From: Planctomycetota bacterium
GTDB lineage: Bacteria; Planctomycetota; PLA2; JAEUHO01
Length of the DNA: 64,000 nucleotides
Direction of reading: 5' to 3'
Assembly (NCBI GenBank): GCA_965222115.1
Contig: CBDCTJ010000003.1
Coordinates: forward strand, 256,001 to 320,000
In this document: positions 37,555 to 55,146 of the stretch, one piece after another
Layout of the letters: each line of letters starts with the position of its first letter
Position numbering within the stretch: the stretch's first letter is position 1
Made by a program: the position numbers and the translations under genes
Notes under the pieces: generated by a model
Seen by the model: the letters and a program-made list of their open reading frames with translations, nothing else
What the model was told of the DNA's origin: nothing
Databases searched by the model: none

Positions 37555-39294
37555 ATGGCTACGGGTCTGCTCCCCCTCATTGTTACCCCCCATCGTGAGA
37601 TTCGCGATCGCCTGTCGCGACTGCTTGACCCTACCCGGCGCGCGCATGTCGCATGGTGGTCATCCATGTCTGAGGGGAGCCACCACGACCAGACGCCCGA
37701 CATCGACCTGTTGATTCTGGATGCACGCTTGCCCGACGCCGCGTGGAGGCGCGAGATTCGAGGACTCGCTGGCAGCATGCTCCGCGCTCTGCCTGTGGTT
37801 GTCATTGTGGACGAACGCGAACGCGAGCGGGCCCAAGACGTCTTGTCCACCATGGATGGAGATTGGATTGCGTCTTCGGATCTCGACCGGCAGACGCTAC
37901 TTCGGTGCATTCGCTACGCCCAGGAGCGACGCGCCTCTTCGCTCCGGCTTGCCTCGGTTCGTCAACGACTGGAAATGCTCGCAAGCATTGATCCGCTCAC
38001 GCGCTGCCTCAACCGACGTGGCCTGGAGCACGCCGCGCGTAAGTTCTGCGCGGCGGCTTCGACCGATGTGGGTCTACCTTCCTTTGCGTTACTCACCGAC
38101 CTCGACAACTTCAAGTCGATCAACGACGACTTTGGCCATGCGACCGGCGACGTCATGCTGCAGGAAGTCTCGAGCGTCATTCGTCGTTACTTACGCCCAT
38201 CGGATGTATTGGCGCGCGTGGGTGGCGACGAATTCTTGGTCCTGCTGCGCTGCCTGTCGCGAGAAGAAGCATCGCATGTGGCGGAACGCCTACGCGCGGC
38301 CCTCGACGAAACATGCATTGAGTATGAAGGCGAGGCCGTGCGCGTGACAGCAAGCGTCGGCATTTCGGAAATCGCTACGGATGGCGCCACCGTGAGCGAA
38401 ATGCTCCACAGCACCCATCGCGGACTCAAACGCTGCAAACGCCGCGGGAAGAATCAGCAGGCTTGGAGTACGGCGGCATCCCCCGACTCGGATCGAGTCA
38501 CGCCCGAAGATCAAGTCATGTTGGCGATGTCTCGCGGCGAGAGCATTACCGTGGTGTGTCAGCCGATCATCGACCTATCGGCAGGCACGATCGAGAGTGT
38601 CGAGTTGTTGACCCGCGGTCCCAATGGAGCATTTGAAAGCCCCAATGACTTTTTCCGAGTGGCACAAGAACGCCAGTTGGTCAATACCATTGACATGAAG
38701 TGCCTGGAAGCGTGTCTCCATGCCACACGGCGAGGCGCGTCCTATCACGTCAACCTGCTCCCTTCTACGATTCTATCCGTGGGCGGCGAACGCTTGGCGC
38801 GCCTCTTTCGCGAAGCCAGCGCCAAACACCTCTGTTTGGAGATCAGTGAAAAGCAAATCGTGGCCAATCCTCGCTACTTAATTGAACACCTCGCGCCGAT
38901 CCGAGAAGCCAGTGTTGAGATTGCCATTGACGACGTCGGATTCGGTCGAAGCTGCCTGGAGAGCTTGATTGTTTTGAAGCCCGACACGATCAAGATCGAC
39001 CGCGCGTGGGTACAGGGTGTTCACAAGAACAAGGACCATGCCATATGGCTAAAGCGCCTATGTGCCGTCGCGAGCGCGTTGGACACACACGTTGTGGCGG
39101 AAGGCGTCGAGTCGCGCGCAGAACTTCGCTGGCTCATGGACCATGGCGTGGCGCGCGCGCAAGGCTACCTATGGGGCCGTCCGGCGCCGGTGGACACCTA
39201 CATTGATGAAGCCGGCAACTTCATTTCACTTGGCGTGATCGGCGATTCCCCGCGCCGTCGCGACGCCGACGTTCATTCAAACGCCAACATATAA
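37555..39294 (+). CDS. REC-like + GGDEF + EAL c-di-GMP enzyme
   Basis: DPLT, DLDNFKSIND..GH, RPSD I-site, intact GGDEF; EAL variant ELL, DDVG, IKIDR, AEGVE, QGY. Confidence 0.9.
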   Translation: MATGLLPLIVTPHREIRDRLSRLLDPTRRAHVAWWSSMSEGSHHDQTPDIDLLILDARLPDAAWRREIRGLAGSMLRALPVVVIVDERERERAQDVLSTMDGDWIASSDLDRQTLLRCIRYAQERRASSLRLASVRQRLEMLASIDPLTRCLNRRGLEHAARKFCAAASTDVGLPSFALLTDLDNFKSINDDFGHATGDVMLQEVSSVIRRYLRPSDVLARVGGDEFLVLLRCLSREEASHVAERLRAALDETCIEYEGEAVRVTASVGISEIATDGATVSEMLHSTHRGLKRCKRRGKNQQAWSTAASPDSDRVTPEDQVMLAMSRGESITVVCQPIIDLSAGTIESVELLTRGPNGAFESPNDFFRVAQERQLVNTIDMKCLEACLHATRRGASYHVNLLPSTILSVGGERLARLFREASAKHLCLEISEKQIVANPRYLIEHLAPIREASVEIAIDDVGFGRSCLESLIVLKPDTIKIDRAWVQGVHKNKDHAIWLKRLCAVASALDTHVVAEGVESRAELRWLMDHGVARAQGYLWGRPAPVDTYIDEAGNFISLGVIGDSPRRRDADVHSNANI

Positions 39295-40454
39295 GCGTAG
39301 CCCAATATGAGCGCGGGAATCGCAGTGTAAAGCGTGGCGACCAACGCCGCACGAGGGGAAATGGCGATCGCGGGAAAGAGCGCATCGCCATCGTTGGACA
39401 GGGCATTGCTGAGTTGGGCGCTAAACGGAATCGCGCCGCCGAGGTAGAGCGTGGTCACTACAATCTGTGGTCCACACCCTGGCAAGAATCCAATCATCGC
39501 GCCGAAGAGCGGCATCAATGCGGGCCATGTGCCGCTGAGGGTGGAGACGTCTACGCCGCCGTAAACCACCAACAACTCGTAAGCGAGAAAGCCACCAATG
39601 ACCCAGATGGTGACGAAGTTGGTGTTGACGGCGACCCGTTCCCAAAGCGGCACAGGTTCGGAGTCCTGCACCTTCATGGTATCGGCCTGGCTTCGGCTGA
39701 GTGCCCACATCATGAGTGAGACCAACGCCCCAAAAAAGCCGAGCAGCAGAACCACCGACATGCCCTGTCGATCCGCGAACGAGAAAAGCATCGCGTCCAC
39801 GTCCAATTGCATGAGTTGCATGCAGGCGATGACGAACGACGGAATCAGAATCGCCGTCCACAACGCGGTCATCCACACGGGAAGGCGCTCGTCGTCCTCG
39901 TCGGCCTCAAAGACCACGGCCGGTTCAACCCGCAAAAAATCACGCCCGTGAATGCGATTGATGATGCCGCCAAACAACCACCCGGCCACCAACCCGCACG
40001 CCATGATCCCCATCGCCACGAGCGGTTGCCGCGCCAGGAGCAGAAAGGCCGCGTCGCCCATGGTGGCCGTCAGCGCGGCGACGACCGCACCGAAACTCGC
40101 GCGTCCCATGGCGTACTGGGTGATGATCATGACGGCACCGCCACAGCCGGGCAGGGCACCCATGCCTGCGGCAAAGGGCAGCTCCCAAGCTCGGTGGCGT
40201 TCGAGGACATCGGACACGTCGATGCGAAACAGGTGCTCGATCGCGAAAAAGATCGCGAACGTGGCGGCGACGAATACGCCCACCGCCAAATAGGCCTCGC
40301 TCATTGCATCCACCAGCAACGGTCGCAATGTGGGGTGCAACAGCAAGGCCCCCAGAAAGGCCATGAGCGCTAAAAGACGAGTCACACCGCCACGCCGAAG
40401 GGGAAGCGTGGACGCCAGGAATTTCTCACGGGCGGCAAGCAGGAGCGTGGTCAT
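39273..40454 (-). CDS. Putative manganese transporter (10-TM heavy-metal exporter-like family)
   Basis: Duplicated PGCG motifs (GALPGCGGA, GFLPGCGPQ), TMGDAAF, SNDGDALFPAIA. Confidence 0.8.
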   Translation of the reverse strand: MTTLLLAAREKFLASTLPLRRGGVTRLLALMAFLGALLLHPTLRPLLVDAMSEAYLAVGVFVAATFAIFFAIEHLFRIDVSDVLERHRAWELPFAAGMGALPGCGGAVMIITQYAMGRASFGAVVAALTATMGDAAFLLLARQPLVAMGIMACGLVAGWLFGGIINRIHGRDFLRVEPAVVFEADEDDERLPVWMTALWTAILIPSFVIACMQLMQLDVDAMLFSFADRQGMSVVLLLGFFGALVSLMMWALSRSQADTMKVQDSEPVPLWERVAVNTNFVTIWVIGGFLAYELLVVYGGVDVSTLSGTWPALMPLFGAMIGFLPGCGPQIVVTTLYLGGAIPFSAQLSNALSNDGDALFPAIAISPRAALVATLYTAIPALILGYAYMLAFE

Positions 40455-40613
40455 GGTGGTCCAGCATGAGTATAGGGGCTCCGGGCGGCGAGGCCGCCGG
40501 CAAAGCAGCATTGGCGGAGGGACGGGACCTTACCGCCCGCGCGTGCTATACCACCGGCCCTACCGCCGGTTGCGCGTAGCCGCTTTCTTAGACCATTCTT
40601 CATGGAGACCCGT

Positions 40614-41225
40614 ATGGCCTTTGATCTTCCCAAACTTCCCTATGGCTACGACGCGCTTGAGCCCTATATCAACACGCGAACGATGACGCTCCATCACGAC
40701 ATGCACCATGCGGGCTATGTCAAAGGCCTCAACGCCGCGGTGGAGGGTGAAGCCTCGCTCGCGGGCAAGTCGCCGGAAGAACTGCTGGCCATGCTCGACA
40801 AGGTGCCCGAAGCCAAGCGTACGGCCGTGCGCAATAGTGGCGGTGGGCATGTCAATCACACGATGTTTTGGAGCATCATGGGACCCAAGAAGGGCGGGGC
40901 GCCCAGCGGTGACCTCGCCGATGCCATCAACAGCACGTTTGGATCGTTTGACAACTTTAAGGACAAGTTCAATAGTGCGGGCGGCTCGCGATTCGGTAGC
41001 GGGTGGGCTTGGCTCATCATGTCGAAGGCCGGACGCCTCGACATCACGAGCACGCCGAATCAAGACAACCCCATGAGTGACGGACACAAGGTCATTATGG
41101 GCAACGACGTGTGGGAACATGCCTACTACCTCACCTATGAGAACCGGCGCGCCGAGTACCTCAAGAACTGGTGGAATGTCGTCAATTGGGACGAGGTGGC
41201 CAAGCGCTTCGCCGCCGCCAAGTAG
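40614..41225 (+). CDS. sodA: Superoxide dismutase, Mn-type signature
   Basis: [48 protein letters not shown]. Confidence 0.95.
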
Positions 41226-41264
41226 GTAAGGACACTGGAAAACGCAAGACGAGAAGCAAACTTC

Positions 41265-41294
41265 GAAGCGCGATTCACAGGTGAATCGCGCCTC
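41265..41294 (+). terminator. GC-rich hairpin after sodA (no U-tract; terminator or mRNA stability element)
   Basis: GCGCGATTCAC-AG-GTGAATCGCGC inverted repeat. Confidence 0.45.
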
Positions 41295-41315
41295 GGTGCA
41301 TAGGGATGGATGACG

Positions 41316-41672
41316 ATGCCGCGCAACGACGTCACGTTTTATTGGAATGGCACCTGAAGCAGTTGCCGCGATCCACGAGGTCTCGTGAAATCCCTTTCGC
41401 CCAACGTCAAAGAGCGCAACTACCGCAAGGAACCCTTTACCAAGGCCGAGCTCACGGCACTTGTGAATGCCGTCGAAGACCTTTCAACGATTCTGAACAC
41501 CCGCCACGCGGTGGCGAAAAAGAAGGGCTGGGACAAAAAGCCCCCCTCCAAAGCAACATTCGTCATCGCCGCGCTAGAAGAGCCCAACCTCCTCAAGCGC
41601 CCCATCGTCCGCCGTGGCGGCAAGGCCATCTACAGTCGCAAAGAAGACGAGATTCGTGCGTTTCTAAAGTAG
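41316..41672 (+). CDS. ArsC/Spx-family redox protein, probable selenoprotein (UxxC; TGA at 41355-41357)
   Basis: Read-through gives MPRNDVTFYWNGT-U-SSCRDPRGLVKSL...ERNYRKEPFTKAEL...EEPNLLKRPIV; a SECIS-like hairpin follows the TGA. Confidence 0.85.
41370..41392 (+). promoter_or_regulatory. Bacterial SECIS-like hairpin
   Basis: GATC-CACG-AGGTCT-CGTG-AAATC; the apical AGGUCU matches the E. coli fdhF SECIS loop and starts 20 nt after the TGA. Confidence 0.75.
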
Positions 41673-41710
41673 GAGCTACCGGGCTTCGGGCATTGAATCG
41701 AAGCTGTGGT

Positions 41711-42583
41711 TCAGCCCAAGAGCTTTAGCGCACGCGACATACCCATTTCGAACGCCGTGAGCGGTGCGTCACCCGTGGACCACGTCATGTAGGACACGCG
41801 CGCGAATGTGCCGGCGGGCGCGCCCTTTCGCTGCGGCGCAGTCGCATCCTGGGGCAGGGCTTCATGCGCGGTGAATTCCAACACGGCGTTTCGCTCGGCA
41901 AGATGCAATGAAATGCCGCAATCGTTGGCTGCCAATACGTCGCCACGCAGCGTCGCGCCATTGCGCAAGCGCAGGTCGAGGACCGAACCGGCGTCCCCCA
42001 CTTCGCCTCGCTCTGTTAGCCACGTAGACAAACCATGCTCGGTACGGAAGCGTTTGACGAGTTCTTCTTTGCTATGCGCGGTGGGTTCGATCATCGAAAA
42101 CCCCTCACGCTTCATGCCCCATTGATTCTCCGTATAGACCCGCAGGCGTTCGAGGGCCAACTGCCATGCACCCGCTGTAGCGCGCACACGCGCCTCGGTG
42201 TGTTCGTCCTCCGCGAATCCACTGTTGGCAATGCTCACGCGACACGCTTGATCATCGCCGTCGATGCGAACTTCGAGGCGCAGCCCGACTTCATCGGAGA
42301 GACCGCGCGGCGCGTGTCGTTCCGTGCCTTCAGGCAGGCGGATATGGGTGCAGTCAAAGAGCATGCGTCGCTCGTGCGTTGCTGCCCGAACGGTTTGTGT
42401 CACGCTGGCTGCCGGACGCCACCACTCCCACTCGACGCGCGCGTCTTCTACAACGCGTCCACGCACTTCGGCTGCCAACCACCCGCTGGCATGATCGGGC
42501 TCGCTCCACGCTCGCCACGCGCGCTCGCGCGCGCAAGCGAGATCGATGTGACACAGCACGGTCCGACCCTCTCGGGGACTCAT
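41711..42583 (-). CDS. Tandem SRPBCC/AHSA1-domain protein
   Basis: RAWRAWSEP....WL, V.I.NSGF......GAW..L..L; a second degenerate domain follows. Confidence 0.7.
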   Translation of the reverse strand: MSPREGRTVLCHIDLACARERAWRAWSEPDHASGWLAAEVRGRVVEDARVEWEWWRPAASVTQTVRAATHERRMLFDCTHIRLPEGTERHAPRGLSDEVGLRLEVRIDGDDQACRVSIANSGFAEDEHTEARVRATAGAWQLALERLRVYTENQWGMKREGFSMIEPTAHSKEELVKRFRTEHGLSTWLTERGEVGDAGSVLDLRLRNGATLRGDVLAANDCGISLHLAERNAVLEFTAHEALPQDATAPQRKGAPAGTFARVSYMTWSTGDAPLTAFEMGMSRALKLLG

Positions 42584-43219: not shown

Positions 43220-45673
43220 ATGGAAGACGACCTCGGACGCCGCAGCATCGTTGACTGGGCCGCGCGCGACATGCCAACAGCCGCGGAGCAAGCGCCGGGG
43301 TCCTTTGAACCGGCGCGCCAGAAATTTCGCGTTGAAATGCCGATCGGCCGCGGTGGCATGGGCGAAGTGTATCTCGTTACGGATGAGGATCTCAAACGCC
43401 AAGTGGCCATGAAGGTCATGTTGGACAAGGTTGCCAAGGATCGCGAACACCGACTGTCATTCGTCGCAGAAGCGCAAGCGACAAGTCAACTCGAACACCC
43501 CGGCATCCCCCCGGTCCACGACATTGGATTGACACCGGAGGGACGCCTCTACTTCACCATGAAACTTGTCCAGGGGCGCACGCTGGCGGAGGTCTTGCGT
43601 GACATTGCACTTCGTCGCCGGGACGTTCAACGCGAGTTTACGTTGCACAAACTGATTAGCATTGTCGAGCGGATATGCGAGACGCTTCAGTTTGCCCACG
43701 AGCGAGGCGTCATTCATCGCGACCTCAAGCCCGAGAACATTATGTTGGGTGACTACGGTGAGGTCCACGTCATGGACTGGGGATTGGCGCGCGTTCACAT
43801 GCCAAGTGACTTGGACGTTGAGGACGCCGACATTGTTGAAACCGCACGAACGGCACTGGGACGCGAAACCGGTAGTGGTGTGGCCAAGGGCACACCGGCC
43901 TACATGAGTCCCGAGCAGATCCGTGGGCGCGTAGACGAAGTGGACGCGCGCAGCGATGTCTACGCCCTTGGTTGTTTGCTCTACGAGGTGCTCACGCTTC
44001 ACGCCGCGTTTGATACGCGCATGGAGGGGTTCGCGAAGAAGAAGCTCGACGGCGAGACCGTGGATGTGACGAAGCGCAATCCGCGGCGCGCGGTGCCGCA
44101 CCCGCTCGCCGACGCGTGCCGGAGGGCCATGGCGGTAACGCCCACCGATCGATACGCATCAGCGCGCGACTTGGGATCGACTCTGCGCACATGGCTCGAC
44201 GGACGTGGCGAGCGCGCACGACGCCACGTGGAAGCCGAACGTCTTGCGGAACAGGGTCGAACCGCCCTTGCCGACGTGGAGAAACAGAAGGAAGAACTCG
44301 TTCGAGCAGAGATCGCGGCGGAGAAGGCGGAGGCCAACATCAAGGCGTGGCAGCCCGTGGAGGAAAAGCGCGATCTGCTCGATGCGCGCCGACGCGTCAA
44401 AGAAGCCAAACGCGATATCGCGCTTGCCTTTGCCGAGGCCACGCACCTGTTGGGAGCGGCGCTCACGCAGGAATCCGACAACGCTGCTGCGCGGCAGACC
44501 CTTGCACGACTTTGGAAGTCAGAGTTGATCGATGCGGAAGCGATGCAGCACGAGGCCAACGCAGCCAAAGCGCTTGCCATGATTGAGCGTTACGACGACG
44601 GACAACTTGGCGCCTTCGTCAAGGGCGATGGCGCGCTCTTCCTGGCATCCGAGCCGTTGGGGGCCCACGTCACACTGGTGTCGTACCGCGACCAAGACGG
44701 TGTGCTGGTGGAGCATGACACACGCTCGCTTGGGCCCACGCCCATCATGGACGTATCACTTCCCATGGGCACGTACCTCTGCATTTTGTCGATGAACGGC
44801 TATGCAGAACTTCGCTATCCCGTGTGCATCGCACGACAACAGACATGGCAAGGCAGTGTCACCATGCGCCGACCCGACGACATTGAGCCCGGATGTGTTC
44901 ATGTTCCGGGCGGTCCATTTCGCGCGGGGGTGGGACGCGACGCCTCCATCGTCACGACCGAAGATTTCGTCATTCAGACGCACCCGGTCACGTTTGGCGA
45001 ATACGCAACGTTCCTAGCCGCCATCGAAAAGGAGCAGGGCAAGGACGTTGCCAATCAACACGTTCCGAGAACCGAAACCAGCGACGGCAACTATCTCATT
45101 CGCCGAGACGACGGCACCTACGTCCCAAGCAAAACCATCGTGGAAGGCGACGCCTACGACGCCATGCTGGCGGCGCACGGCCCGGGATTTGAGTCCAATA
45201 TCGCCGTGCACGGCGTGAGCTACAACGACGCCCTTGCGTACTGCGCGTGGAAACGGAAGACACAAAAGCGAGCGTGGCGGCTGCCTACGGAATACGAGTG
45301 GGAGAAAGCCGCTCGCGGTGTGGATGGCCGCGAATTTCCGTGGGGCGACCTGTGTGATGCAAGCCTGGGCAAGAATCGAGAATCGCGCCCCTACGCGCCC
45401 CAACCTGAGCCCGTAGGCGCATTTCCATCTGCTGTCTCAATCTATGGCATGCGCGATGCAGGCGGAACCATTTGGAACTGGACCGACAGTTGGTTCACGA
45501 GCCGGAAGGCATTACGGGTACTGCGTGGCGGCTCGTGGGGCATTCCCGCCCGCCTCATGCGCTGTACATTTCGCAACTCGTTTCATCCTGATGCACGCGA
45601 TTCGCTCAATGGGTTCCGGTGTGTCTATTCACTGGCACAAGACGCAGCCGAATCTCCGCCTGACCATTCGTAG
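43220..45673 (+). CDS. Ser/Thr protein kinase fused to a helical linker and an FGE/SUMF1-like domain
   Basis: GRGGMGEV, VAMK, HRDLKPEN, DWGLA, GTPAYMSPEQ; RLPTEYEWEKAARG, RGGSW, GFRC. Confidence 0.92.
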   Translation: MEDDLGRRSIVDWAARDMPTAAEQAPGSFEPARQKFRVEMPIGRGGMGEVYLVTDEDLKRQVAMKVMLDKVAKDREHRLSFVAEAQATSQLEHPGIPPVHDIGLTPEGRLYFTMKLVQGRTLAEVLRDIALRRRDVQREFTLHKLISIVERICETLQFAHERGVIHRDLKPENIMLGDYGEVHVMDWGLARVHMPSDLDVEDADIVETARTALGRETGSGVAKGTPAYMSPEQIRGRVDEVDARSDVYALGCLLYEVLTLHAAFDTRMEGFAKKKLDGETVDVTKRNPRRAVPHPLADACRRAMAVTPTDRYASARDLGSTLRTWLDGRGERARRHVEAERLAEQGRTALADVEKQKEELVRAEIAAEKAEANIKAWQPVEEKRDLLDARRRVKEAKRDIALAFAEATHLLGAALTQESDNAAARQTLARLWKSELIDAEAMQHEANAAKALAMIERYDDGQLGAFVKGDGALFLASEPLGAHVTLVSYRDQDGVLVEHDTRSLGPTPIMDVSLPMGTYLCILSMNGYAELRYPVCIARQQTWQGSVTMRRPDDIEPGCVHVPGGPFRAGVGRDASIVTTEDFVIQTHPVTFGEYATFLAAIEKEQGKDVANQHVPRTETSDGNYLIRRDDGTYVPSKTIVEGDAYDAMLAAHGPGFESNIAVHGVSYNDALAYCAWKRKTQKRAWRLPTEYEWEKAARGVDGREFPWGDLCDASLGKNRESRPYAPQPEPVGAFPSAVSIYGMRDAGGTIWNWTDSWFTSRKALRVLRGGSWGIPARLMRCTFRNSFHPDARDSLNGFRCVYSLAQDAAESPPDHS

Positions 45674-46104: not shown

Positions 46105-48159
46105 CTACAACGCAGACAGCGTGTGGGGAATGATCGCGGCCCACGTGCCCGACGCGCGTACGGTCGTGGTCACCTGCTCGTGGCTCCCGTCATTCCCTTC
46201 GTCCACCAGCACTTGGTGAATTTGACCGTAGACGTCGAGCGTCGTCGTCGTTGATTTGTCGGCAACTTGGTCGTCATTGTTGTCTTCGAAAATGATCAAT
46301 CCACCGGTCGGGTGTGTCTGGAACCACCACGCGGTGACTGTTTCGGGCGTGCCATCTCCGTTGGTGTCAACTTCGGTTCGCGTTCGCCGACCCACGCCGT
46401 CGTACTCGTGGCGGATCGTACTGTCGGGCACGTCGTCGCCGTCGATGTCATTCAACTCGGCTGTGACGCGACCAGTGTCGTCATGTTCGTACTTCGTCGA
46501 TTCGTCAAAGGTGCCGTCGTCATCATGGTCTTCGAGCAATTCCACGAGACGGTTGTCTTCGTCGTATTCCCAGCGCGTGCTCATGATGCCGTCGTCGTCG
46601 GCGTCATGCTCGCGCGTCACGCCGCCCAGCGCATGGATCGTTGAACGAAAGTCAATCGTGCCATCGCCGTCGTAGTCCGATTCATTGACCACGCCTCCAG
46701 CCGGTGGGTAGCCCCAGGTCGTCACGGAATCGATGATGCCATCGCGGTTGGCATCGCTCTCAAAGATGATCGCTCGCCCCATGGGGTCGTAGGCGGTCTG
46801 GAACTGTGAGTCACGAACGCCATCACCGGTGGTGTCGTATTCGGTGACAAGGCTCATGAGCTGCGAACCGTTGTAGTTCCACATTTGCAATTCATCGATC
46901 ACGCCATCTTCGCCTCGATCGATCTCAACGGTCAGCGGTCGGTCCTGGGCATCGAAGGTGCGCATCGTAACGTCGTCGGGCGTAGCGGGATTGTCGTCGG
47001 CGTCGTATCGGCGCAGGACTTCGCGACCTTGATCGTCATACTGAATGGTTGTGACCGCGTCGAGGCCATCATCGTTGGGATCGTTACGGGCGATGGACTG
47101 GGTCACGTTGCCCATCGCATCATACGTCGTAAACAACTCGTACTCGGGATTGCCACTGTCATTCGTGTCAAAAGACGTCGACGTGCGGTTTCCGAAGGCG
47201 TCGTAGGTATATGTCCGTCGAACATTGGGACGCGCCGATCCGCTGTAGTCCCGATACTCTTCAAGTAGATTGCCGTTCGGATCGTACGTATTGGTTTCCA
47301 GCGCCAACTGCATGCCCATACCATCGAGACGCTCACGCGTGAGCACGGCGCCCTCACTGTTGTGTGTGTGAATCATCGACTCGTCAATGCCGGGGCCAGC
47401 AATCGTGTCGTGGTCGGATTGGCTGAAATAACCAAAGGGACCGTCGTGGGCCCATGTCTCCTGTCGTTCAAGCGGCGGCGTGCCATCCGAGTCGGTGCTG
47501 GTTTCCGCCGTGCGATAGAAATTGTGCACGACGCCGAGCGCAGCATATTGCCGCTCCAATACGACAGCAGCAAACGGAATCGGCCTTCCTGCGCCACCCC
47601 ATACGCCCGCCGCGAGTGCATCTCGCCGCATGGTGAGCAGTTTCAAGTCGGCTCGAAACGTCTGCCATCGTTGATAGAAGCCAATCTCAACGCCTGCTAG
47701 AACCGCGTGGAGTTCCACAGGAATCTGAATGCCATTTGCGGGATCAGCGTCGCTGTCAATCATCTGGAGGAATGTGGACAGATTTAGAAACTGCGAAAAC
47801 AGAAGCGATCCATTTATTGCGCGTAGCGCATCGTCGTTTGTGATGGGCAAGCCCAGGCTTGGAAAGAGGTCCATGAGCGTCATCGATTGGGCGGCCGGCG
47901 CGGTTCCTAACAGCGTATCGCCCACGTAAAACGAAATGTCTTCGCCGGCCTCATAGGCAAACTGCCCGGATGCATCCGTCATGCCATTCACGGTGCCGCT
48001 CTCAAAGCGCAGCCCCTCAATAGACATATCGGAGAACACGCCAGTCATCGACGTCCCACCGCTTCCCCCACCGCCCCCGCCACAACTCGCGAGCAATGAC
48101 AATGAGCTCATGACGAGCACCCACGCGCACCGAGCGCTCACGTTCCAATATCGAGACAT
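46105..48159 (-). CDS. Lipoprotein with YD/DxDxDG repeats (paralog 1)
   Basis: LASC lipobox plus poly-Gly; G.TD..G.F.YE.GE domain; D.D.DP.NGIQIP; YD..G repeats. Confidence 0.8.
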   Translation of the reverse strand: MSRYWNVSARCAWVLVMSSLSLLASCGGGGGGSGGTSMTGVFSDMSIEGLRFESGTVNGMTDASGQFAYEAGEDISFYVGDTLLGTAPAAQSMTLMDLFPSLGLPITNDDALRAINGSLLFSQFLNLSTFLQMIDSDADPANGIQIPVELHAVLAGVEIGFYQRWQTFRADLKLLTMRRDALAAGVWGGAGRPIPFAAVVLERQYAALGVVHNFYRTAETSTDSDGTPPLERQETWAHDGPFGYFSQSDHDTIAGPGIDESMIHTHNSEGAVLTRERLDGMGMQLALETNTYDPNGNLLEEYRDYSGSARPNVRRTYTYDAFGNRTSTSFDTNDSGNPEYELFTTYDAMGNVTQSIARNDPNDDGLDAVTTIQYDDQGREVLRRYDADDNPATPDDVTMRTFDAQDRPLTVEIDRGEDGVIDELQMWNYNGSQLMSLVTEYDTTGDGVRDSQFQTAYDPMGRAIIFESDANRDGIIDSVTTWGYPPAGGVVNESDYDGDGTIDFRSTIHALGGVTREHDADDDGIMSTRWEYDEDNRLVELLEDHDDDGTFDESTKYEHDDTGRVTAELNDIDGDDVPDSTIRHEYDGVGRRTRTEVDTNGDGTPETVTAWWFQTHPTGGLIIFEDNNDDQVADKSTTTTLDVYGQIHQVLVDEGNDGSHEQVTTTVRASGTWAAIIPHTLSAL

Positions 48160-48382
48160 TGTCTGAGGACTCCCGCGAGGCGCCGCCCCAGACGCGCTCG
48201 CAACCACTGTATGTGGAGTTCACACGATTGGGGGCGCGGTTGGCGTTGCGATGCCCACATTTCGCGGCGATTTGGTAGATGCGACGATTTGGCATCGATA
48301 CCCAAAATGAAGCACGCGCCCGGCCTGCGCGTGGCTGGCCGAGCGCGTTCGAATTCGATCGTGGAGGCGTTGGGAGACTGCG

Positions 48383-50149: not shown

Positions 50150-51730
50150 TTACCACCAGCGCTGCGTGCCTTCATGCAGCGTGAAAATGCGCTCCAGACG
50201 TCGAGAGTCCTTCTTCACCAGCCAGTAAAGACCATCCGTAGCTAGCCCTTGCTCAAGTATTGAGTCGGACCCGGCCACGAACGTTCGCAAGTCATGCCAC
50301 GCGCCATCGCGCCACACCTTGAGTGTGTACGTCGTTCCGTCCTTCAGTGTGGACTTGGGGGTGACTTCGTGCGTATCGGGACTCACAAACTTGGGGTGGG
50401 TGCCCAGGAGATAGACGCTTCCTTTGCTCCCAACGCCGCCGAGCGTGGCGAGCGAACCGTTGCGGTGCACAATGAACGGCGGTGCGAAGGGCTTCAAGGA
50501 CTTGCCATCATACGTCGCGGGCAAGTAGCAGATATTGCGGCCCATCTTGGTAAACGTCACGTGCCCGTCCTTGATCTTGCCCCAGTGAATCGGCGTCCAC
50601 TTGCCCCCATTGAAAACGCAGATATAGGCGAACTGCCGCGCGATATGCTTGGCGTCGTCAACGGCGAGCGTCGCGTCAGTCGTAGGCGCGTACTGATCGG
50701 TGACGTCAATATAGGTCGGGCTTGCCATGAATCGCGATGGCGCCAGCGACTTGTCGCTGAGCTGAAAGATGAGATTATTGCGTTGAATTGCGAACGTCTT
50801 GCGATACACCTTGGCCGCGTGCGCATTGCCCTTGGACGATCCCTTGCCTTCGCGATCGAGCAACACATTCCAGGCGTGGTTGTTGTCGCGATGGGCCCAT
50901 GCCGGCGTGTAATCGGCGGCCGTGGCAAGCGCAACCGCGCGAGACGCAAACGTGATCATATTGGTGATGTCCTCGCATCGCCCCTGCCCACTCTCAATCA
51001 TTTCCTCAAATCCTTGATCCGTAGGGTGTAGATAATAGCGCTTATTGAAGTGCACGCGTTTGTGAACGTCCGTGCCAACTCGATGCCACAGGCGACGGAT
51101 CTTAGACATGCCCGCTTCTTTCTTCGTGGGCGGCGTCTTCGTGAGTTGTTCTTCGAGCGACGCGTAGCGTTTCGCAAGCGAGGGCAACCAAGCATCCAAC
51201 GGCTCTTGGCTGCCGCGATACGGAAGGACAAAGTTACAGAATGTGTCAAAGTCCACGCGACGCGATGCGGGCGATGCGCGCCATGCTTGGAAGGCCGCTT
51301 CAATATGCGCGATCAAGTACGTTGCGGTGATCGTCTCGACATCCAGCACTTTTTTGGTGCGGTCAAATGACAGTTCACCGTGTTCTTTCTCGAGTGCATC
51401 GAGCGCATCAAGTGCTCTCTTGTAATTCTTGTAGGCAAGCGGATCGAAGGCGATCTCGTTCTTCGCCTTGTCGCGCAGCGTCGTAACGATGTAGCCGTGT
51501 CCGGGCATATTGGCAATCAAGAAGCGCGCGGCTTTAAACATCTCGTCGTCGCCCTTCGATTCGAAATGGGCAAGAACATTCTCGAGTTCTGTCCGGTTGC
51601 TGCCGGCCGCACTTAGCGCTTCCGCAATCCATATGTTCATTGGATCGGGCGTCTCTTTCGCAAGGACGTATGGCCCATCACTGAATACAACGAGCATCAA
51701 GGCGAATAGGGCGATCGAAATGCGAATCAT
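50150..51730 (-). CDS. Secreted transglutaminase-like domain protein
   Basis: AG.NR.ELE.VL.H, AA.FLIANMP.H, F.NFVLPYR, G.CED (Cys), HAWN (His), KVYR.TF. Confidence 0.8.
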   Translation of the reverse strand: MIRISIALFALMLVVFSDGPYVLAKETPDPMNIWIAEALSAAGSNRTELENVLAHFESKGDDEMFKAARFLIANMPGHGYIVTTLRDKAKNEIAFDPLAYKNYKRALDALDALEKEHGELSFDRTKKVLDVETITATYLIAHIEAAFQAWRASPASRRVDFDTFCNFVLPYRGSQEPLDAWLPSLAKRYASLEEQLTKTPPTKKEAGMSKIRRLWHRVGTDVHKRVHFNKRYYLHPTDQGFEEMIESGQGRCEDITNMITFASRAVALATAADYTPAWAHRDNNHAWNVLLDREGKGSSKGNAHAAKVYRKTFAIQRNNLIFQLSDKSLAPSRFMASPTYIDVTDQYAPTTDATLAVDDAKHIARQFAYICVFNGGKWTPIHWGKIKDGHVTFTKMGRNICYLPATYDGKSLKPFAPPFIVHRNGSLATLGGVGSKGSVYLLGTHPKFVSPDTHEVTPKSTLKDGTTYTLKVWRDGAWHDLRTFVAGSDSILEQGLATDGLYWLVKKDSRRLERIFTLHEGTQRWW

Positions 51731-51856
51731 GAGGTACTCCCAAACGAGGGGAGTGAATCGTACGTCGTGGCGCTCAAAGGGCAATGCCCTTGGGCCTCAA
51801 ACTCGTGTCCGAGAACCGAAGTGCTGCGTCCAGCGCAAACCGACGGAACGTGGCGG

Positions 51857-53275
51857 CTACGGATTCGACACCGCACATCGCACGGGGGCGCTCACAACGA
51901 GCACGAGAGACACCAGCACAAGCAAGAGCGTGGCGACCCACGTGTGCTCGTAGCGAATCCAATCCATTACGCTTGGGCGCGGGGCGCCAGGCATCGCGTT
52001 CAGATCGTGCAGCGCGACAGCCGCGACATACTTTCGATTCCCCGCCGACTGGGTGCCATGTATGAGGAACGAACGCACCGTATTGACGTCAATGGTCTCG
52101 GGAACGCCAAAGCGCTTCATGAGTTGTACGCCGTACCACGTTCCGCGAATACTCCCCCACTGATAGTCACCGCCACGTTCGTACTCGCGGAACCCTCCCG
52201 CGGCCGAGAAGCCGCCGGCCTGCATGGAATGCAGTGCCGTGAGCATCTCTGCGAAGTGTTCAGACCACGACTCAGGCACAAGTGGGCGCTCAAGAACATC
52301 GAGCAGCGAGACAAGCATCCACGCCTCCTCCAATGCCCCGTGCTCGGCTACGTCGATCATCTCCAACGAGTGACGTACACGAATCGCAAGATTGTCGCGA
52401 TCGTGATCATCCAACATGTTTGTCATTGTCAGGAGGTGAATGACCCACACATCCTGCGTGAGATATGATATGGAGCTCCCAGTAGATTCTGGGGATAGCA
52501 AACGGACGCGTTCATCGTCAAACTCACGGATACGATCGACGTCACCCGGTTGAAGGAGGCCTGACCACGACGCGCTCGTGAGTACGTGATCATTCTGTCG
52601 CCCGCGAATCTCCCGTTCGATCAATGCGCGTGGACGTCGCATATCCACATCGAAGTCGTGCGTGAGCAACGAATTGGCGACCAGCGCGAAGGCATGCCAC
52701 GACGCCGTGTCAAACCGCGCCTTGTCAAACGCCTCGACGTACCCGCGCGCGCTCTGTATATCCGCGGTTCTATATGCGCGTGATGCGTTTATCGCAAATA
52801 TCGGAAGAATGGCCAGGACCCACCAAACACTCTGTCGCTGCGCCTTTGGACGAATGATCCATCCAAGTAGCGCCATGACGCCACCCACGAGCAGGAACGC
52901 GAGATGGAGATGTTGATTCGGCCAGAGCCGGATCGATTCTGGGGTCCGATTCGGGGTGCCAACGATGAGGGAGATGAAAACGATGAAGCACGCGCTGAGA
53001 CCCAAGACATAGGATCGCGGGGCCAGTCCGCGCGCACTCAGCGACCGTACGATTCCAACGAGTGCAATGACCCCAGCGAGAACGATGCCGGTCAATACCC
53101 ACCGATCTCGAACGAAGTAGGCAGCTACGCCGATCAAATACAAAAGCGCATAAAGCCAGTGGTGCTCACGCCACCACGTCTGAATGCGCTCCGTATGGGA
53201 GACGTCCACCGTTTCGTTAAGGGAGCGCGGCTCGCTTGGGTTCGATGCCTCGGTACCTGGGTTGGGGGCATCCAT
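51857..53275 (-). CDS. Hypothetical membrane protein with a C-terminal helical (prenyltransferase-repeat-like) domain
   Basis: About 5 N-terminal TM segments, GGF...TWYGV.L motif, C-terminal TM. Confidence 0.6.
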   Translation of the reverse strand: MDAPNPGTEASNPSEPRSLNETVDVSHTERIQTWWREHHWLYALLYLIGVAAYFVRDRWVLTGIVLAGVIALVGIVRSLSARGLAPRSYVLGLSACFIVFISLIVGTPNRTPESIRLWPNQHLHLAFLLVGGVMALLGWIIRPKAQRQSVWWVLAILPIFAINASRAYRTADIQSARGYVEAFDKARFDTASWHAFALVANSLLTHDFDVDMRRPRALIEREIRGRQNDHVLTSASWSGLLQPGDVDRIREFDDERVRLLSPESTGSSISYLTQDVWVIHLLTMTNMLDDHDRDNLAIRVRHSLEMIDVAEHGALEEAWMLVSLLDVLERPLVPESWSEHFAEMLTALHSMQAGGFSAAGGFREYERGGDYQWGSIRGTWYGVQLMKRFGVPETIDVNTVRSFLIHGTQSAGNRKYVAAVALHDLNAMPGAPRPSVMDWIRYEHTWVATLLLVLVSLVLVVSAPVRCAVSNP

Positions 53276-53327
53276 GGCGAACACTGTACCACAGCAAGTA
53301 GTGGCACCTCCCGCGCGGCTCAACCCG

Positions 53328-54956
53328 TCACACGTCGAACCAGGTTCCGGATTCGGGCACATACTCCTCGACTATGTCGAGCGTGCCATCGGCGTCACTA
53401 TCACGCTCCATCCGTATTCGAAAACCATTGGCGTCGTAGAAATAGCGCGTTGTAGCATCGGGCACTCCATCCGCGTTTCCATCGAATGATCGAAGTGTCA
53501 CATCGCCGTTTGCGTTGTATTCGTAAACGGTTTCGCTATCGACAGTCCCGTCTGCGTCGTCGTCCGTCCATGTCGACTGAATCCAGCCGTTCGCATCATA
53601 TACGATTCCACTTGCTTGATCGATCGATCCGTCGTCAAATTCGTCGGTTGTGCTTCCGACATATCGCCCTAGAGCATCGAACTCATACCCCGTGAATTCG
53701 TCCCATATCCCGTCACCGTCGCTATCTGATCGGTATTGATGTATGCGACCCGCACTGTCGTATACATAGTGATCAACTTCGTCCCACGTCCCGTCGGCAC
53801 CGGAATCGTCGCGGTAATAGACTGGTCTTCCCTGAGCGTCGTATTCAATGGCCCAACGAGAGTCTATGGTGCCGTCCGGTTCATAATCGGTATCTTGTAG
53901 AATCAGCCGACCGGCGCCATCGTAAAGATACAGCACTCTCTGATCCCACACGCCATCTGCGCCACTGTCACGTTCGAACATCGTCTTCAACCCAATCGCA
54001 TTGCGTGAGCTGACTTCAAGATAGTCCAGCGATCCATCATCTCCTTCGTCTCGTGCGAATTCTAGTTCTCGCCCGTTTGAGTCGTACTGCCACCGCTCTC
54101 TTCGATCGATTCCATCCAGGTTGAAATCAGCTGTTAACTCGATTCGTTGATCGAGACTGTTGTACGTTTGGTGATACTGCACATCGATGACACCATCGCC
54201 ATCATTGTCGCGTCGGCTAAATGTGCGGCGGCCACTGCTATCGTACTGATACTCATCCGTTCGATCGACGGTGCCGTCGCCGTCCGCATCCCTCGTTGAA
54301 TTCGTCACGCGACAGAATGTCGTCTGAATGTTTAGGTCTTCGTACAGATGCTGAAGGGCGCGCTTCAGCGACACCACGCCCTTTCCAAGACCTCCCCAGA
54401 GTCCTTCGCTGACTCCATCCGCCAGAAGCGCGCGAAACTGAAGATCGTCTCGAAATTGGTAGTACGGGATGGACATGTCCAGCATCAAATTATTGTCAGA
54501 CGACGCAAACAGCGCTGGCACTTGGATACCGTTGTTTGGGTCGGCATCCTCGTCAATGGTGTGAAACAAGACCACTAGATTGATGAATTGATCATTTCTT
54601 CTAGCTTCACGCCAATCAGGATCGAGAAACGCCTTAGCCTGCGCCTTCGTGGTGGGCAACGTCGTCCCAGGCACTAGATCCACTGAGGTCAGCGCGGCGG
54701 CACCCGGCACTTGACTAAGCTGAGTATCGCCGAAGCGAAACGTAACCAGTTCGCCGGCTTCGTAGAGAAATCCCCCATCAACATCGGTGAGCCCTTGGTG
54801 CGACGGCGTTTCGTAGGGCAGTCCCGCTACGAGAGGAGCCGCTAGGACTCCCCGTAGCGTATCAGCGGTACCGCCGCCACCGCCCCCACCACCACAGGCA
54901 GGCAAGGCAGTCGCAGATAGAACCAGCAAAGTGGCGTGCAGCGCATATCGAGACAT
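53328..54956 (-). CDS. Lipoprotein with 12 YD/DxDxDG repeats (paralog 2)
   Basis: LPAC plus poly-Gly; same N-terminal domain as paralogs 1 and 3; 27-aa periodic repeats. Confidence 0.82.
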   Translation of the reverse strand: MSRYALHATLLVLSATALPACGGGGGGGGTADTLRGVLAAPLVAGLPYETPSHQGLTDVDGGFLYEAGELVTFRFGDTQLSQVPGAAALTSVDLVPGTTLPTTKAQAKAFLDPDWREARRNDQFINLVVLFHTIDEDADPNNGIQVPALFASSDNNLMLDMSIPYYQFRDDLQFRALLADGVSEGLWGGLGKGVVSLKRALQHLYEDLNIQTTFCRVTNSTRDADGDGTVDRTDEYQYDSSGRRTFSRRDNDGDGVIDVQYHQTYNSLDQRIELTADFNLDGIDRRERWQYDSNGRELEFARDEGDDGSLDYLEVSSRNAIGLKTMFERDSGADGVWDQRVLYLYDGAGRLILQDTDYEPDGTIDSRWAIEYDAQGRPVYYRDDSGADGTWDEVDHYVYDSAGRIHQYRSDSDGDGIWDEFTGYEFDALGRYVGSTTDEFDDGSIDQASGIVYDANGWIQSTWTDDDADGTVDSETVYEYNANGDVTLRSFDGNADGVPDATTRYFYDANGFRIRMERDSDADGTLDIVEEYVPESGTWFDV

Positions 54957-55146
54957 GACGGTACTCCTTCGACAGGTACGTACCGGGTAGACGGACGTGA
55001 GAGGAGAAATTGCCCCCAACCGCGTATCCGATACGGGACGACGCAGCGATTGAGAGAAGATGAGCACTCCACCTCTGACGCCAAAAATCTATTCGCTCAA
55101 TGCGCTTCCCCGTCACGCACCTGAACAAGCCGGATCGGCACGAGAA

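Follow-up and report, generated by a model that had tools for sequence, protein, structure and literature searches.

Does the TGA that interrupts a small reading frame downstream of a superoxide dismutase gene in this Planctomycetota bacterium specify selenocysteine (Sec), and what protein would the gene then encode? In the window, by which we mean the whole 64-kb stretch of DNA analysed here, a forward-strand frame runs for 118 codons from ATG 41316 to the stop TAG at 41670–41672 (41316–41672), and its sole interruption is a TGA at codon 14 (41355–41357). Translated with TGA as U, it begins MPRNDVTFYWNGTUSSCRDPRG. The frame opens past a TAG at 41301–41303 and offers an alternative in-frame start at ATG 41310; a Shine–Dalgarno-like AGGGA (41302–41306, forward strand), 9 nt 5′ of ATG 41316, is a putative ribosome-binding site. 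If UGA is read as Sec, gene finders lose the first 23 residues. The only open reading frame listed at the locus is indeed the shortened 41385–41672 (forward strand, 95 aa, stored as P0002), which starts at a GTG with a Shine–Dalgarno-like GAGG 4 nt upstream and, as a sequence-only reading of this DNA had recognized, leaves out the active site. An overlapping reading frame in the +2 frame (41306–41728, 140 aa) was rejected as a gene, as it has no Pfam match at E ≤ 1.

The read-through protein matches the Pfam ArsC family (PF03960) at 43.7 bits against a threshold of 24, with residues 9–116 covering profile positions 1–79 of 79; the 95-aa product of the GTG start matches positions 17–79 only, at 37.9 bits, and loses positions 1–16. 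We aligned 154 homologous matches, comprising 150 listed of the 162 at E ≤ 1e-3 together with P0003–P0006, one of the matches being the window’s own open reading frame. Among the matches listed, 107 of the 154 cover the TGA column, where 105 have Cys, one Trp and one Pro; the second motif column, occupied in our protein by Cys17 (TGC, 41364–41366, forward strand), has Cys in 70 and Ser in 35 of these 107. The TGA thus sits where the family’s CxxC/CxxS motif has its first Cys, in frame with ATG 41316, just as had been proposed, and it also aligns with Cys10 of solved Spx proteins. Conservation extends to both flanks of the site (VTFYWNGT-U-SSCR compared with TLYWKST-C-TSCR), and the nearest full-length relatives among the matches listed (P0008–P0012, 39–43% identity) have the motif (L/F)(Y/F)WKSTC(T/D)(S/T)CR, compared with FYWNGTUSSCR here. 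The sequence-only reading had named a failure of homologues to align upstream of the TGA as one of the findings that would count against it; the 13 codons upstream do align with full-length homologues. The single homologue with Trp at the TGA column, P0079, has another Trp at the point where family members normally stop, together with extensions at both ends, and looks like a translation made with a TGA = Trp table rather than a protein with a true Trp.

Searches of nucleotide data returned Cys forms. A genome-contig search with the read-through protein gave 251 pattern matches and one confirmed locus, a Flavobacteriaceae ArsC with 33% identity that aligns from residue 6 and has Cys at the site. 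The tblastn search against plasmids returned 16 records; each is a Spx gene from Firmicutes with Cys, and none has the TGA form. Placement of the DNA by its ribosomal protein S1 gave no taxonomic assignment, as the nearest protein-atlas clusters are scattered among Gemmatimonadota, Planctomycetota, Verrucomicrobiota and other groups.

We consider it likely, with a probability of roughly 0.8, that the product of 41316–41672 is an ArsC/Spx-superfamily protein of 118 residues with a thioredoxin fold and the motif U14-S-S-C17, its Sec specified by the UGA at 41355–41357. An AlphaFold2 model of the read-through protein (mean pLDDT 84.5) has strand β1 at residues 6–10 and helix α1 at residues 15–27, which places U14 at the helix N-terminus in the model, and Foldseek comparisons with Spx and ArsC structures give TM scores of 0.77–0.82.

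Insertion at this site would follow the established bacterial Sec pathway, in which SelB together with GTP and Sec-tRNA(Sec) would bind a small stem-loop within about 33 nt of coding sequence past the UGA. Sec would then be delivered at the UGA in competition with release factor 2, and a UGA left without recoding would yield only a 13-residue peptide. Judging from fold and motif, the selenolate would sit at the N-terminus of α1, the place of the first Cys in Spx and ArsC, and would attack an oxidised or electrophilic substrate; Cys17, the putative resolving cysteine of the UxxC motif, would resolve the adduct as a selenenylsulfide, and a cellular thiol system would re-reduce the protein. A role as a selenol/thiol redox switch or as a disulfide-type reductase appears more probable than one as a classical glutaredoxin-coupled arsenate reductase.

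A candidate for the apical element of a Sec insertion sequence (SECIS) lies on the forward strand at 41374–41387 (CACGAGGTCTCGTG), where CACGA-GGUC-UCGUG forms a hairpin with a 5-bp stem and the 4-nt loop GGTC. The sequence-only reading had drawn this hairpin as CACG-AGGTCT-CGTG; it is present, and its pairing goes one step further, to a stem of CACGA/TCGTG around the shorter GGTC loop. Counting the T of TGA as +1, the loop occupies +25 to +28; the hairpin begins 19 nt past that T, with its stem 16 nt after the UGA. The window contains 492 GGTC sites, counting both strands, and exactly one of them is flanked by five Watson–Crick pairs on each side; only one of 1,989 TGA trinucleotides, that at 41355, has such a hairpin 18–30 nt downstream. 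A looser bSECIS-like rule (any 5-bp stem with a loop of 3–8 nt and a G in its first two positions) was rejected as a test, since it fits 675 of the 1,989 TGAs and has no discriminating value. The codons that build the hairpin are off the family consensus (P20, G22 and V24, compared with mostly A, A and L in CxxC homologues) and are less favoured ones, CCA making up 12% of Pro codons, CGA 17% of Arg and GGT 22% of Gly.

In thermodynamic terms, the hairpin is unimpressive, with a folding energy of −5.5 kcal/mol over 14 nt, and a predicted pair probability of about 0.08; it contains no bulged U, and a long lower stem is lacking. A second stem-loop that cannot form together with it, at 41367–41387 on the same strand, with a CGCGA/UCGUG stem, bulged U41372 (+18), CC/GG pairs and an ACGA loop, reaches −7.2 kcal/mol with pair probabilities of about 0.8 in a 46-nt context and is predicted to be the more stable of the two; either fold may be the one that SelB would bind. 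The 66-nt region as a whole folds no better than shuffled sequences (z = −0.29), and an Rfam search of the whole window at gathering thresholds and of 41250–41500 at E ≤ 10 returned no family, a result that is uninformative for bacterial SECIS elements.

The alternative that best withstands these data is a pseudogene or base-call error: a single-base change, either in the organism itself or introduced during assembly, would have turned a Cys codon into TGA, and the full-length protein would not be made. TGA is indeed one base from TGC or TGT, the candidate SECIS is as weak as just described, and the 64-kb window contains no tRNA genes and, among the 48 open reading frames scanned, no selA-, selB- or selD-like domains. 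Against such a lesion or base-call error, the frame is otherwise uninterrupted before and after the TGA and has a start codon and a Shine–Dalgarno-like site, and this TGA, out of 1,989, is the one with a properly spaced GGUC hairpin. Further, the closest relatives, at 47–64% identity, have no recorded form other than ones that begin past the site, and these shortened forms cluster in one clade, as would be expected of an inherited TGA rather than an isolated lesion. We regard this alternative as quite improbable.

That clustering is seen in several ways. In a word-indexed search, all five matches were proteins of 92–97 aa that start after the site, namely the window’s own P0002 and the four relatives at 47–64% identity. 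Among the 154 aligned matches, 47 stop short of the TGA column, 36 of them beginning with M, L or V at query positions 18–36. The N-termini called for the short relatives vary in position and sequence, the pattern expected when gene finders pick whichever start codon comes first downstream of a stop. In a tree built from 83 columns with a midpoint root (basal split support 80), short forms make up 29 of the 40 rows in the clade of the window protein (SH-like support 95); in the half of the tree that holds this clade they account for 41 of 75 rows, and in the opposite half for 3 of 77, all among the matches listed. Random fragmentation would not produce so uneven a distribution. The shortened protein records of these relatives are indirect evidence, and suggest that the TGA has been inherited within the clade, which also has the motifs N61-T-R-H64 and G71-W72 followed by P76-P-S78.

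These short records also bear on the possibility that the 95-residue protein from GTG 41385 is the true product and that the upstream similarity is a remnant. The GAGG before this GTG and the similar length, about 95 aa, of the closest database records in the clade are in its favour. Set against this, the shorter product would be left, according to the model, without strand β1, the redox motif and most of helix α1 of a four-stranded thioredoxin-like fold, and it lacks the first 16 positions of the Pfam ArsC profile; the start sites called for the short relatives agree neither in position nor in sequence, and homology to full-length proteins persists through the 13 codons before the TGA. We judge it very unlikely that the gene begins at the GTG.

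Least probable of all is readthrough of the UGA without a Sec system, by near-cognate insertion of Trp or Cys or by genome-wide reassignment of TGA: the Trp of P0079 and the fact that SelB is unproven from the window speak for it, but that Trp resembles a product of the translation table, a Trp at the nucleophilic active site would be inactive, and TGA terminates 11 of the 31 Pfam-supported open reading frames in the window. On this last count we rejected a changed genetic code, as TGA is an ordinary stop in this DNA and the recoding would be local.

The genomic neighbourhood leaves the choice between redox and arsenic chemistry less clear than was proposed from the sequence. The gene does lie directly after sodA, on the same strand, its start 90 nt past the stop at 41225 of the sodA-like Fe/Mn superoxide dismutase gene (40602–41225, forward strand; Pfam Sod_Fe_N, E = 3.6e-27; Sod_Fe_C, E = 1.3e-42). 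Between the two, at 41264–41295, is a strong palindrome with a 14-pair stem and no U tract on the forward strand, probably a sodA terminator or RNA-stability hairpin, or alternatively a protein-binding site. From this linkage, and from a stated absence of ars genes nearby, a role in redox stress had been preferred to arsenate detoxification. The absence turned out to be mistaken: a reverse-strand gene at 39273–40511, divergent from sodA and two genes from the selenoprotein candidate, encodes a membrane protein of the ArsP_2/arsenic-efflux family, with scores above cut-offs (Pfam PF11449, 389 bits; NCBIfam NF037962, ‘arsenic efflux protein’, 214.7 bits against a cut-off of 100). With this neighbour, the argument for a redox-stress over an arsenic-linked role loses its premise. 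The candidate roles are thus those of a redox switch, a disulfide-type reductase or an arsenic-related function.

What is new here is a correction to annotation and not a new kind of biology, as ArsC-like selenoproteins were known before. The stored 95-aa protein is without its active site, an error that seems to recur in dozens of related clusters in the databases. The NCBIfam model NF041106 (ArsC_rel_Se_1) misses the clade, so automatic pipelines will keep overlooking its members, which a dedicated model would recover. If Sec insertion is true, the organism would be flagged as Sec-decoding and the gene would provide a compact natural SECIS (14–21 nt) to compare with that of fdhF. A bolder and, in our estimate, unlikely extension is that the clade constitutes a sizeable, diversified and uncatalogued group of Spx-like UxxC selenoproteins, with at least 29 clusters at 50% identity known as stumps of about 95 aa and lying outside NF041106, in which a selenium redox switch or regulator would be expressed with superoxide dismutase and might, through the efflux gene, link oxidative-stress and arsenic responses outside Firmicutes.

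The closest known counterpart of the hairpin is the SECIS of Escherichia coli K-12 fdhF (TGA CACGGCCCATCGGTTGCAGGTCTGCACC), in which the loop GGTC lies at +22 to +25. The window element has the same loop one codon (3 nt) farther from the UGA, at the 3-nt shift given by the sequence-only reading, and the two have in common an apical A-GGUC-U closed by Watson–Crick pairs within the coding sequence, with stems CACGA-GGUC-UCGUG here and GCA-GGUC-UGC in fdhF. Beyond the apex they differ: the fdhF element is a hairpin of about 40 nt at −14.9 kcal/mol with a bulged U, whereas ours is a bulge-free hairpin of 14 nt at −5.5 kcal/mol with a competing fold. In the available part of one account (PMC8659212), U17, G23 and U24 of the fdhF SECIS are described as critical, and the minimal element has a bulged U on the 5′ side of its upper stem and an upper stem-loop that starts 11 nt after the UGA; going by that part, the GGUC hairpin has neither the bulged U nor the 11-nt start. 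The alternative fold in the window does have a bulged U, as in fdhF, but a different loop. The proposed label of an fdhF-type SECIS is thus borne out at the apical A-GGUC-U and fails for the bulged U and the long lower stem, and the rival fold is predicted to be the stabler one.

Selenoproteins of the ArsC family, some with UxxS and some with UxxC, have been described before, as far as the available parts of these papers go (PMC1088965, PMC1794560, PMC2398784, PMC9312934, PMC13188914), in agreement with the earlier statement that such proteins had been reported. Those from bacterial and metagenome surveys include, in excerpts of three of the papers (PMC2398784, PMC9312934, PMC13188914), an ‘Arsenate reductase’ group with UxxS and an ‘Arsenate reductase 2 / arsenate reductase-like protein’ group with UxxC. 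With the selenoproteins described in those excerpts, the window protein shares the PF03960 domain, Sec in place of the N-terminal active-site Cys, the UxxC motif and a stem-loop in the coding sequence after the UGA. The functions of these selenoprotein families are described as largely uncharacterised in the accessible portion of a recent review (PMC13188914). The window protein scores 14.7 bits (E = 0.036) with NF041106, compared with a cut-off of 85, and that model is listed for 8 of 10 relatives scanned at 14–38.5 bits, also below the cut-off; these scores place the window protein in a different ArsC/Spx-like clade, which may or may not correspond to the GOS-survey group ‘Arsenate reductase 2 (cd03032)’.

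Among proteins of solved structure, the best sequence matches are Spx and MgsR (PDB 1Z3E, 3L78 and 3GFK; E = 5.5e-9 to 1e-6, residues 6–117). These proteins, regulators of Firmicutes that sense redox state and bind RNA polymerase, have CxxC at the same place, U14 corresponding to Cys10 and C17 to Cys13; the C-terminal EDEIRAFL segment is similar, and the predicted model superposes with TM scores of 0.79–0.82. Scores for the curated Spx/MgsR models fall far below their cut-offs (NF002459, 42.8 against 123; TIGR01617, 34.9 against 75.05). The window protein ends at residue 118, at about Spx residue 115, without the last 15 or so residues of the 131–132-aa Spx chains, and has a one-residue gap at the Gly of EDGTDE in Bacillus subtilis Spx, a residue that we take to matter for binding of the RNA polymerase α subunit.

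Glutaredoxin-coupled ArsC of the E. coli R773 type (PDB 1I9D) has the same fold (TM score about 0.75–0.78) with the nucleophile at the same position, and the TIGR00014 model for glutaredoxin-dependent ArsC gives the window protein 44.5 bits, where the cut-off is 106.05. Among the matches listed, Arg95 and Arg108 of the window protein are kept from the CxxS-type homologues, in which these columns are Arg in 34 of 35 and 33 of 35, respectively, and Asn61 stands where 33 of the 35 have the first of the three conserved ArsC arginines. The ArsC signature HNP(R)CSKSR becomes WNGTUSSCR, in which a second Cys takes the place of Ser.

On the forward strand, a reading frame opens after the TAG at 41301–41303, offers ATG codons at 41310 and 41316, and ends with the TAG at 41670–41672. 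The sole interruption of the frame at 41316–41672 is a TGA at 41355–41357, the proposed selenocysteine (Sec, U) codon 14. Translated from ATG 41316 with TGA read as U, the frame gives an ArsC/Spx-like protein of 118 residues beginning MPRNDVTFYWNGTUSSCRDPRGLVKSLSPNVKERNY. A mechanical ORF listing reports just the segment 41385–41672 (GTG start, 95 amino acids, forward strand), and the entry for this gene in public protein collections, P0002, is this truncated 95-aa version. Both the loss of the active site from the called ORF and the ATG-41316 frame with its in-frame TGA had been described by a sequence-only reading and are confirmed here. Gene finders choose GTG 41385 because a GAGG, lying within the candidate SECIS hairpin (41377–41385 region), stands 4 nt upstream of it. 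A 140-codon ORF in another frame (41306–41728, forward strand) covers the whole gene; it has no Pfam match and is rich in Arg, a tendency of off-frame ORFs in G+C-rich DNA. This ORF is most likely spurious.

Several lines of evidence bear on whether 41316–41672 is a genuine Sec-encoding gene, a reading to which we assign a probability of roughly 80%.

First, the TGA is aligned with the family cysteine. The read-through protein matches the full Pfam ArsC profile (PF03960, positions 1–79 of 79; 43.7 bits, gathering score 24), whereas the GTG-start ORF matches positions 17–79 alone (37.9 bits). Searched exhaustively with HMMER, 1.84 billion cluster representatives yielded 162 matches at E ≤ 1e-3; the 150 listed and four from a word-indexed search were aligned (154 sequences, including the window's own ORF). 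Among these listed matches, 107 of the 154 cover the TGA column, and Cys occupies it in 105 (69 CxxC, 35 CxxS and 1 CxxT), bearing out the claim that the TGA falls on the first Cys of CxxC; the two non-Cys residues are one Trp and one Pro. The closest full-length relatives among the matches listed (P0008–P0012, 39–43% identity) read (L/F)(Y/F)WKSTC(T/D)(S/T)CR against FYWNGTUSSCR in the window, and similarity therefore extends across and upstream of the TGA. A genome-contig scan gave a single genomic relative, L001, which belongs to a Flavobacteriaceae MAG, carries Cys at the site and aligns from residue 6. Among solved structures, Spx proteins rank highest by sequence (3L78 at 5.5e-9; 1Z3E, 6GHB and 3GFK at about 4e-8), and alignment with solved Spx places U14 at Cys10 and C17 at Cys13.

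Second, an AlphaFold2 model built on a 150-row alignment (mean pLDDT 84.5) predicts the first strand at residues 6–10 and the first helix at residues 15–27, which would put U14 at the N-terminus of that helix. This is the classical nucleophile position of thioredoxin-fold enzymes. By the same model, a product starting at GTG 41385 (residue 24) would be without the first strand, the motif and most of the first helix. A Foldseek search of the PDB returned the putative arsenate reductase 3RDW, Spx (3GFK, 6GHO and 1Z3E, at TM 0.79–0.82), YffB and E. coli ArsC.

Third, truncated forms recur among relatives, which speaks indirectly for an inherited TGA over a lesion. All five matches of the word-indexed search are 92–97-aa forms starting after the Cys/TGA site, one being P0002 and four being relatives at 47–64% identity. 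The TGA column is missed by 47 of the 154 aligned sequences, and in 36 of these the N-terminal residue is M, L or V and aligns to query positions 18–36, as would be expected had a gene finder picked the earliest start codon that follows a stop. In a FastTree tree of the shared region (83 columns, 152 rows, after removal of P0002, whose sequence is that of the window protein, and of two rows that were too short), the clade holding the window protein comprises 40 rows (SH-like support 95), including 29 short forms and 8 CxxC proteins. On the window protein's side of this tree, 41 of 75 rows are short forms; on the opposite side, home to most CxxS-type (ArsC-like) rows, 3 of 77 are. The tree has a short alignment, a midpoint root and a basal split supported at just 80. 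Random fragmentation of metagenome contigs would not pile short forms up in a single clade. At least 29 clusters (50% identity) of the window's clade are stored solely as forms of about 90–100 aa, and truncation of the clade's database entries seems systematic. P0079, the record with Trp in the Sec column, carries a second Trp at the usual family end and is extended on both sides, which suggests a Sec-form gene read with a TGA=Trp table.

Fourth, TGA stops 11 of the 31 Pfam-supported ORFs of the window; it is an ordinary stop there and recoding is therefore local. The 64-kb window contains no tRNA genes, and no SelA, SelB or SelD domain was detected in the 48 ORFs scanned within it.

Fifth, a candidate SECIS-like element is present at the right place. 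The hairpin noted in the sequence-only reading, at 41374–41387 (forward strand), is best drawn with a 5-bp stem, CACGA/UCGUG, and a GGUC tetraloop (−5.5 kcal/mol; pair probability about 0.08), and it is mutually exclusive with an alternative fold at 41367–41387 (forward strand; CGCGA/UCGUG, bulged U41372, ACGA loop; −7.2 kcal/mol; pair probability about 0.8), both probabilities being predicted in a 46-nt context. Only 1 of the 492 GGTC sites on both window strands is flanked by five Watson–Crick pairs. This site is 24 nt downstream of the T of TGA 41355, the only such case among 1,989 TGA trinucleotides. Folding of the 66-nt region is no better than that of shuffled sequences, and Rfam searches gave no match. 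In E. coli K-12 fdhF, the Sec codon is followed by CACGGCCCATCGGTTGCAGGTCTGCACC, and the 45-nt element reaches −14.9 kcal/mol in its minimum-energy structure. The apical A-GGUC-U is identical in the two hairpins, with the loop beginning at +22 in fdhF and at +25 in the window (U of UGA as +1), in agreement with the 3-nt shift noted earlier. The description 'fdhF-type SECIS' holds for this apical loop and fails for the rest: the window's GGUC hairpin has no bulged U, is small and weak, and faces a more stable competing fold. A review calls U17, G23, U24 and an 11-nt spacing critical in the E. coli SECIS (PMC8659212). The hairpin encodes P20-R21-G22-L23-V24, positions at which Ala, Arg, Ala, Leu and Leu predominate in CxxC homologues, and three of its codons are less favoured by window usage (CCA, 12% of Pro and the rarest Pro codon; CGA, 17% of Arg; GGT, 22% of Gly), which lends mild support to selection on the RNA.

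By analogy with the established bacterial pathway, SelB with Sec-tRNA(Sec) would bind the stem-loop 12–33 nt after the UGA and deliver Sec for insertion at codon 14. The fold and motif suggest that the U14 selenolate would attack an oxidised or electrophilic substrate, that C17 would resolve the adduct to a selenenylsulfide, and that a thiol system would recycle it.

Upstream on the same strand, across a 90-nt spacer, lies an Fe/Mn superoxide dismutase gene assigned by Pfam (sodA, 40602–41225). The spacer holds a near-perfect palindrome with a 14-pair stem (41264–41295), with no U tract on the forward strand and a T-rich tail following on the reverse strand. The palindrome may act as a terminator, a stability hairpin or a binding site for a protein. 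Just 20 nt separate it from the ATG, and transcription therefore probably enters through it from upstream. About 800 bp from the start of the selenoprotein gene, and oriented divergently to sodA, a gene at 39273–40511 (reverse strand) encodes a 10-TM membrane protein of the arsenic-efflux family (Pfam ArsP_2, 389 bits; NCBIfam 'arsenic efflux protein', 214.7 bits against a cut-off of 100), and the earlier statement that no ars genes lie nearby is wrong. Since Pfam similarity sets in at residue 63, the efflux gene likely has its true start further in, at an internal Met about 19 codons along. Two convergent SRPBCC/AHSA1-type genes lie downstream of the selenoprotein gene. Elsewhere in the window are a Ser/Thr protein kinase fused to an FGE-sulfatase (formylglycine-generating-enzyme-like) domain (43220–45673, forward strand) and two large RHS-repeat proteins (46105–48207 and 53328–55067, reverse strand) among several long ORFs with no Pfam match (50150–51784, 51857–53362, 55147–56775 and 58324–60765). 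A 538-aa protein (4665–6281, reverse strand), adjoining genes for thymidylate kinase and the DNA polymerase III delta' subunit, combines the ATPase and C-terminal helix-turn-helix domains of DnaA; because the scores are modest, it could be either a paralogue or a divergent version of DnaA.

The window protein falls below the cut-offs of four curated NCBIfam models: TIGR00014 (glutaredoxin-type ArsC; 44.5 bits, cut-off 106.05), NF002459 (Spx; 42.8, cut-off 123), TIGR01617 (Spx/MgsR; 34.9, cut-off 75.05) and NF041106 (ArsC_rel_Se_1, 'ArsC family (seleno)protein'; 14.7, cut-off 85). Column statistics give its clade a signature of its own: N61-T-R-H64, G71-W72, then P76-P-S78. At one column the window protein has Asn where 33 of 35 ArsC-like CxxS homologues have Arg; Arg95 and Arg108 are retained. 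Compared with Spx, it is without the C-terminal ~15 residues, and the Gly of the EDGTDE segment aligns to a gap. It is therefore an ArsC-superfamily protein, nearest Spx by sequence, and on these comparisons is not demonstrably a member of ArsC proper, Spx or the curated Sec-ArsC family. Because the ArsC signature is not retained, we rate a role as redox switch or disulfide-type reductase above classical arsenate reduction; an arsenic link through the efflux neighbour is possible.

ArsC-family selenoproteins are repeatedly on record, as the sequence-only reading had noted. The accessible parts of the sources give 14 sequences in the Sargasso Sea survey (PMC1088965), an 'ArsC-like' selenoprotein in Desulfotalea psychrophila and a distant ArsC homologue in Desulfuromonas acetoxidans (PMC1794560), 77 'ArsC 1, UxxS' and 42 'Arsenate reductase 2, cd03032, UxxC' sequences in the GOS survey (PMC2398784), and both UxxS and UxxC forms in two reviews (PMC9312934, PMC13188914), the latter, from 2026, giving NF041106 as the model for the UxxC 'arsenate reductase-like' selenoprotein. 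None of ten relatives scanned reaches that model (14–38.5 bits in the eight with listed scores), which, together with the short-form storage of the window's clade, suggests a systematic annotation gap. The window gene thus adds a member of an already known type, one that lies outside the curated model and in a clade whose database entries seem systematically cut short.
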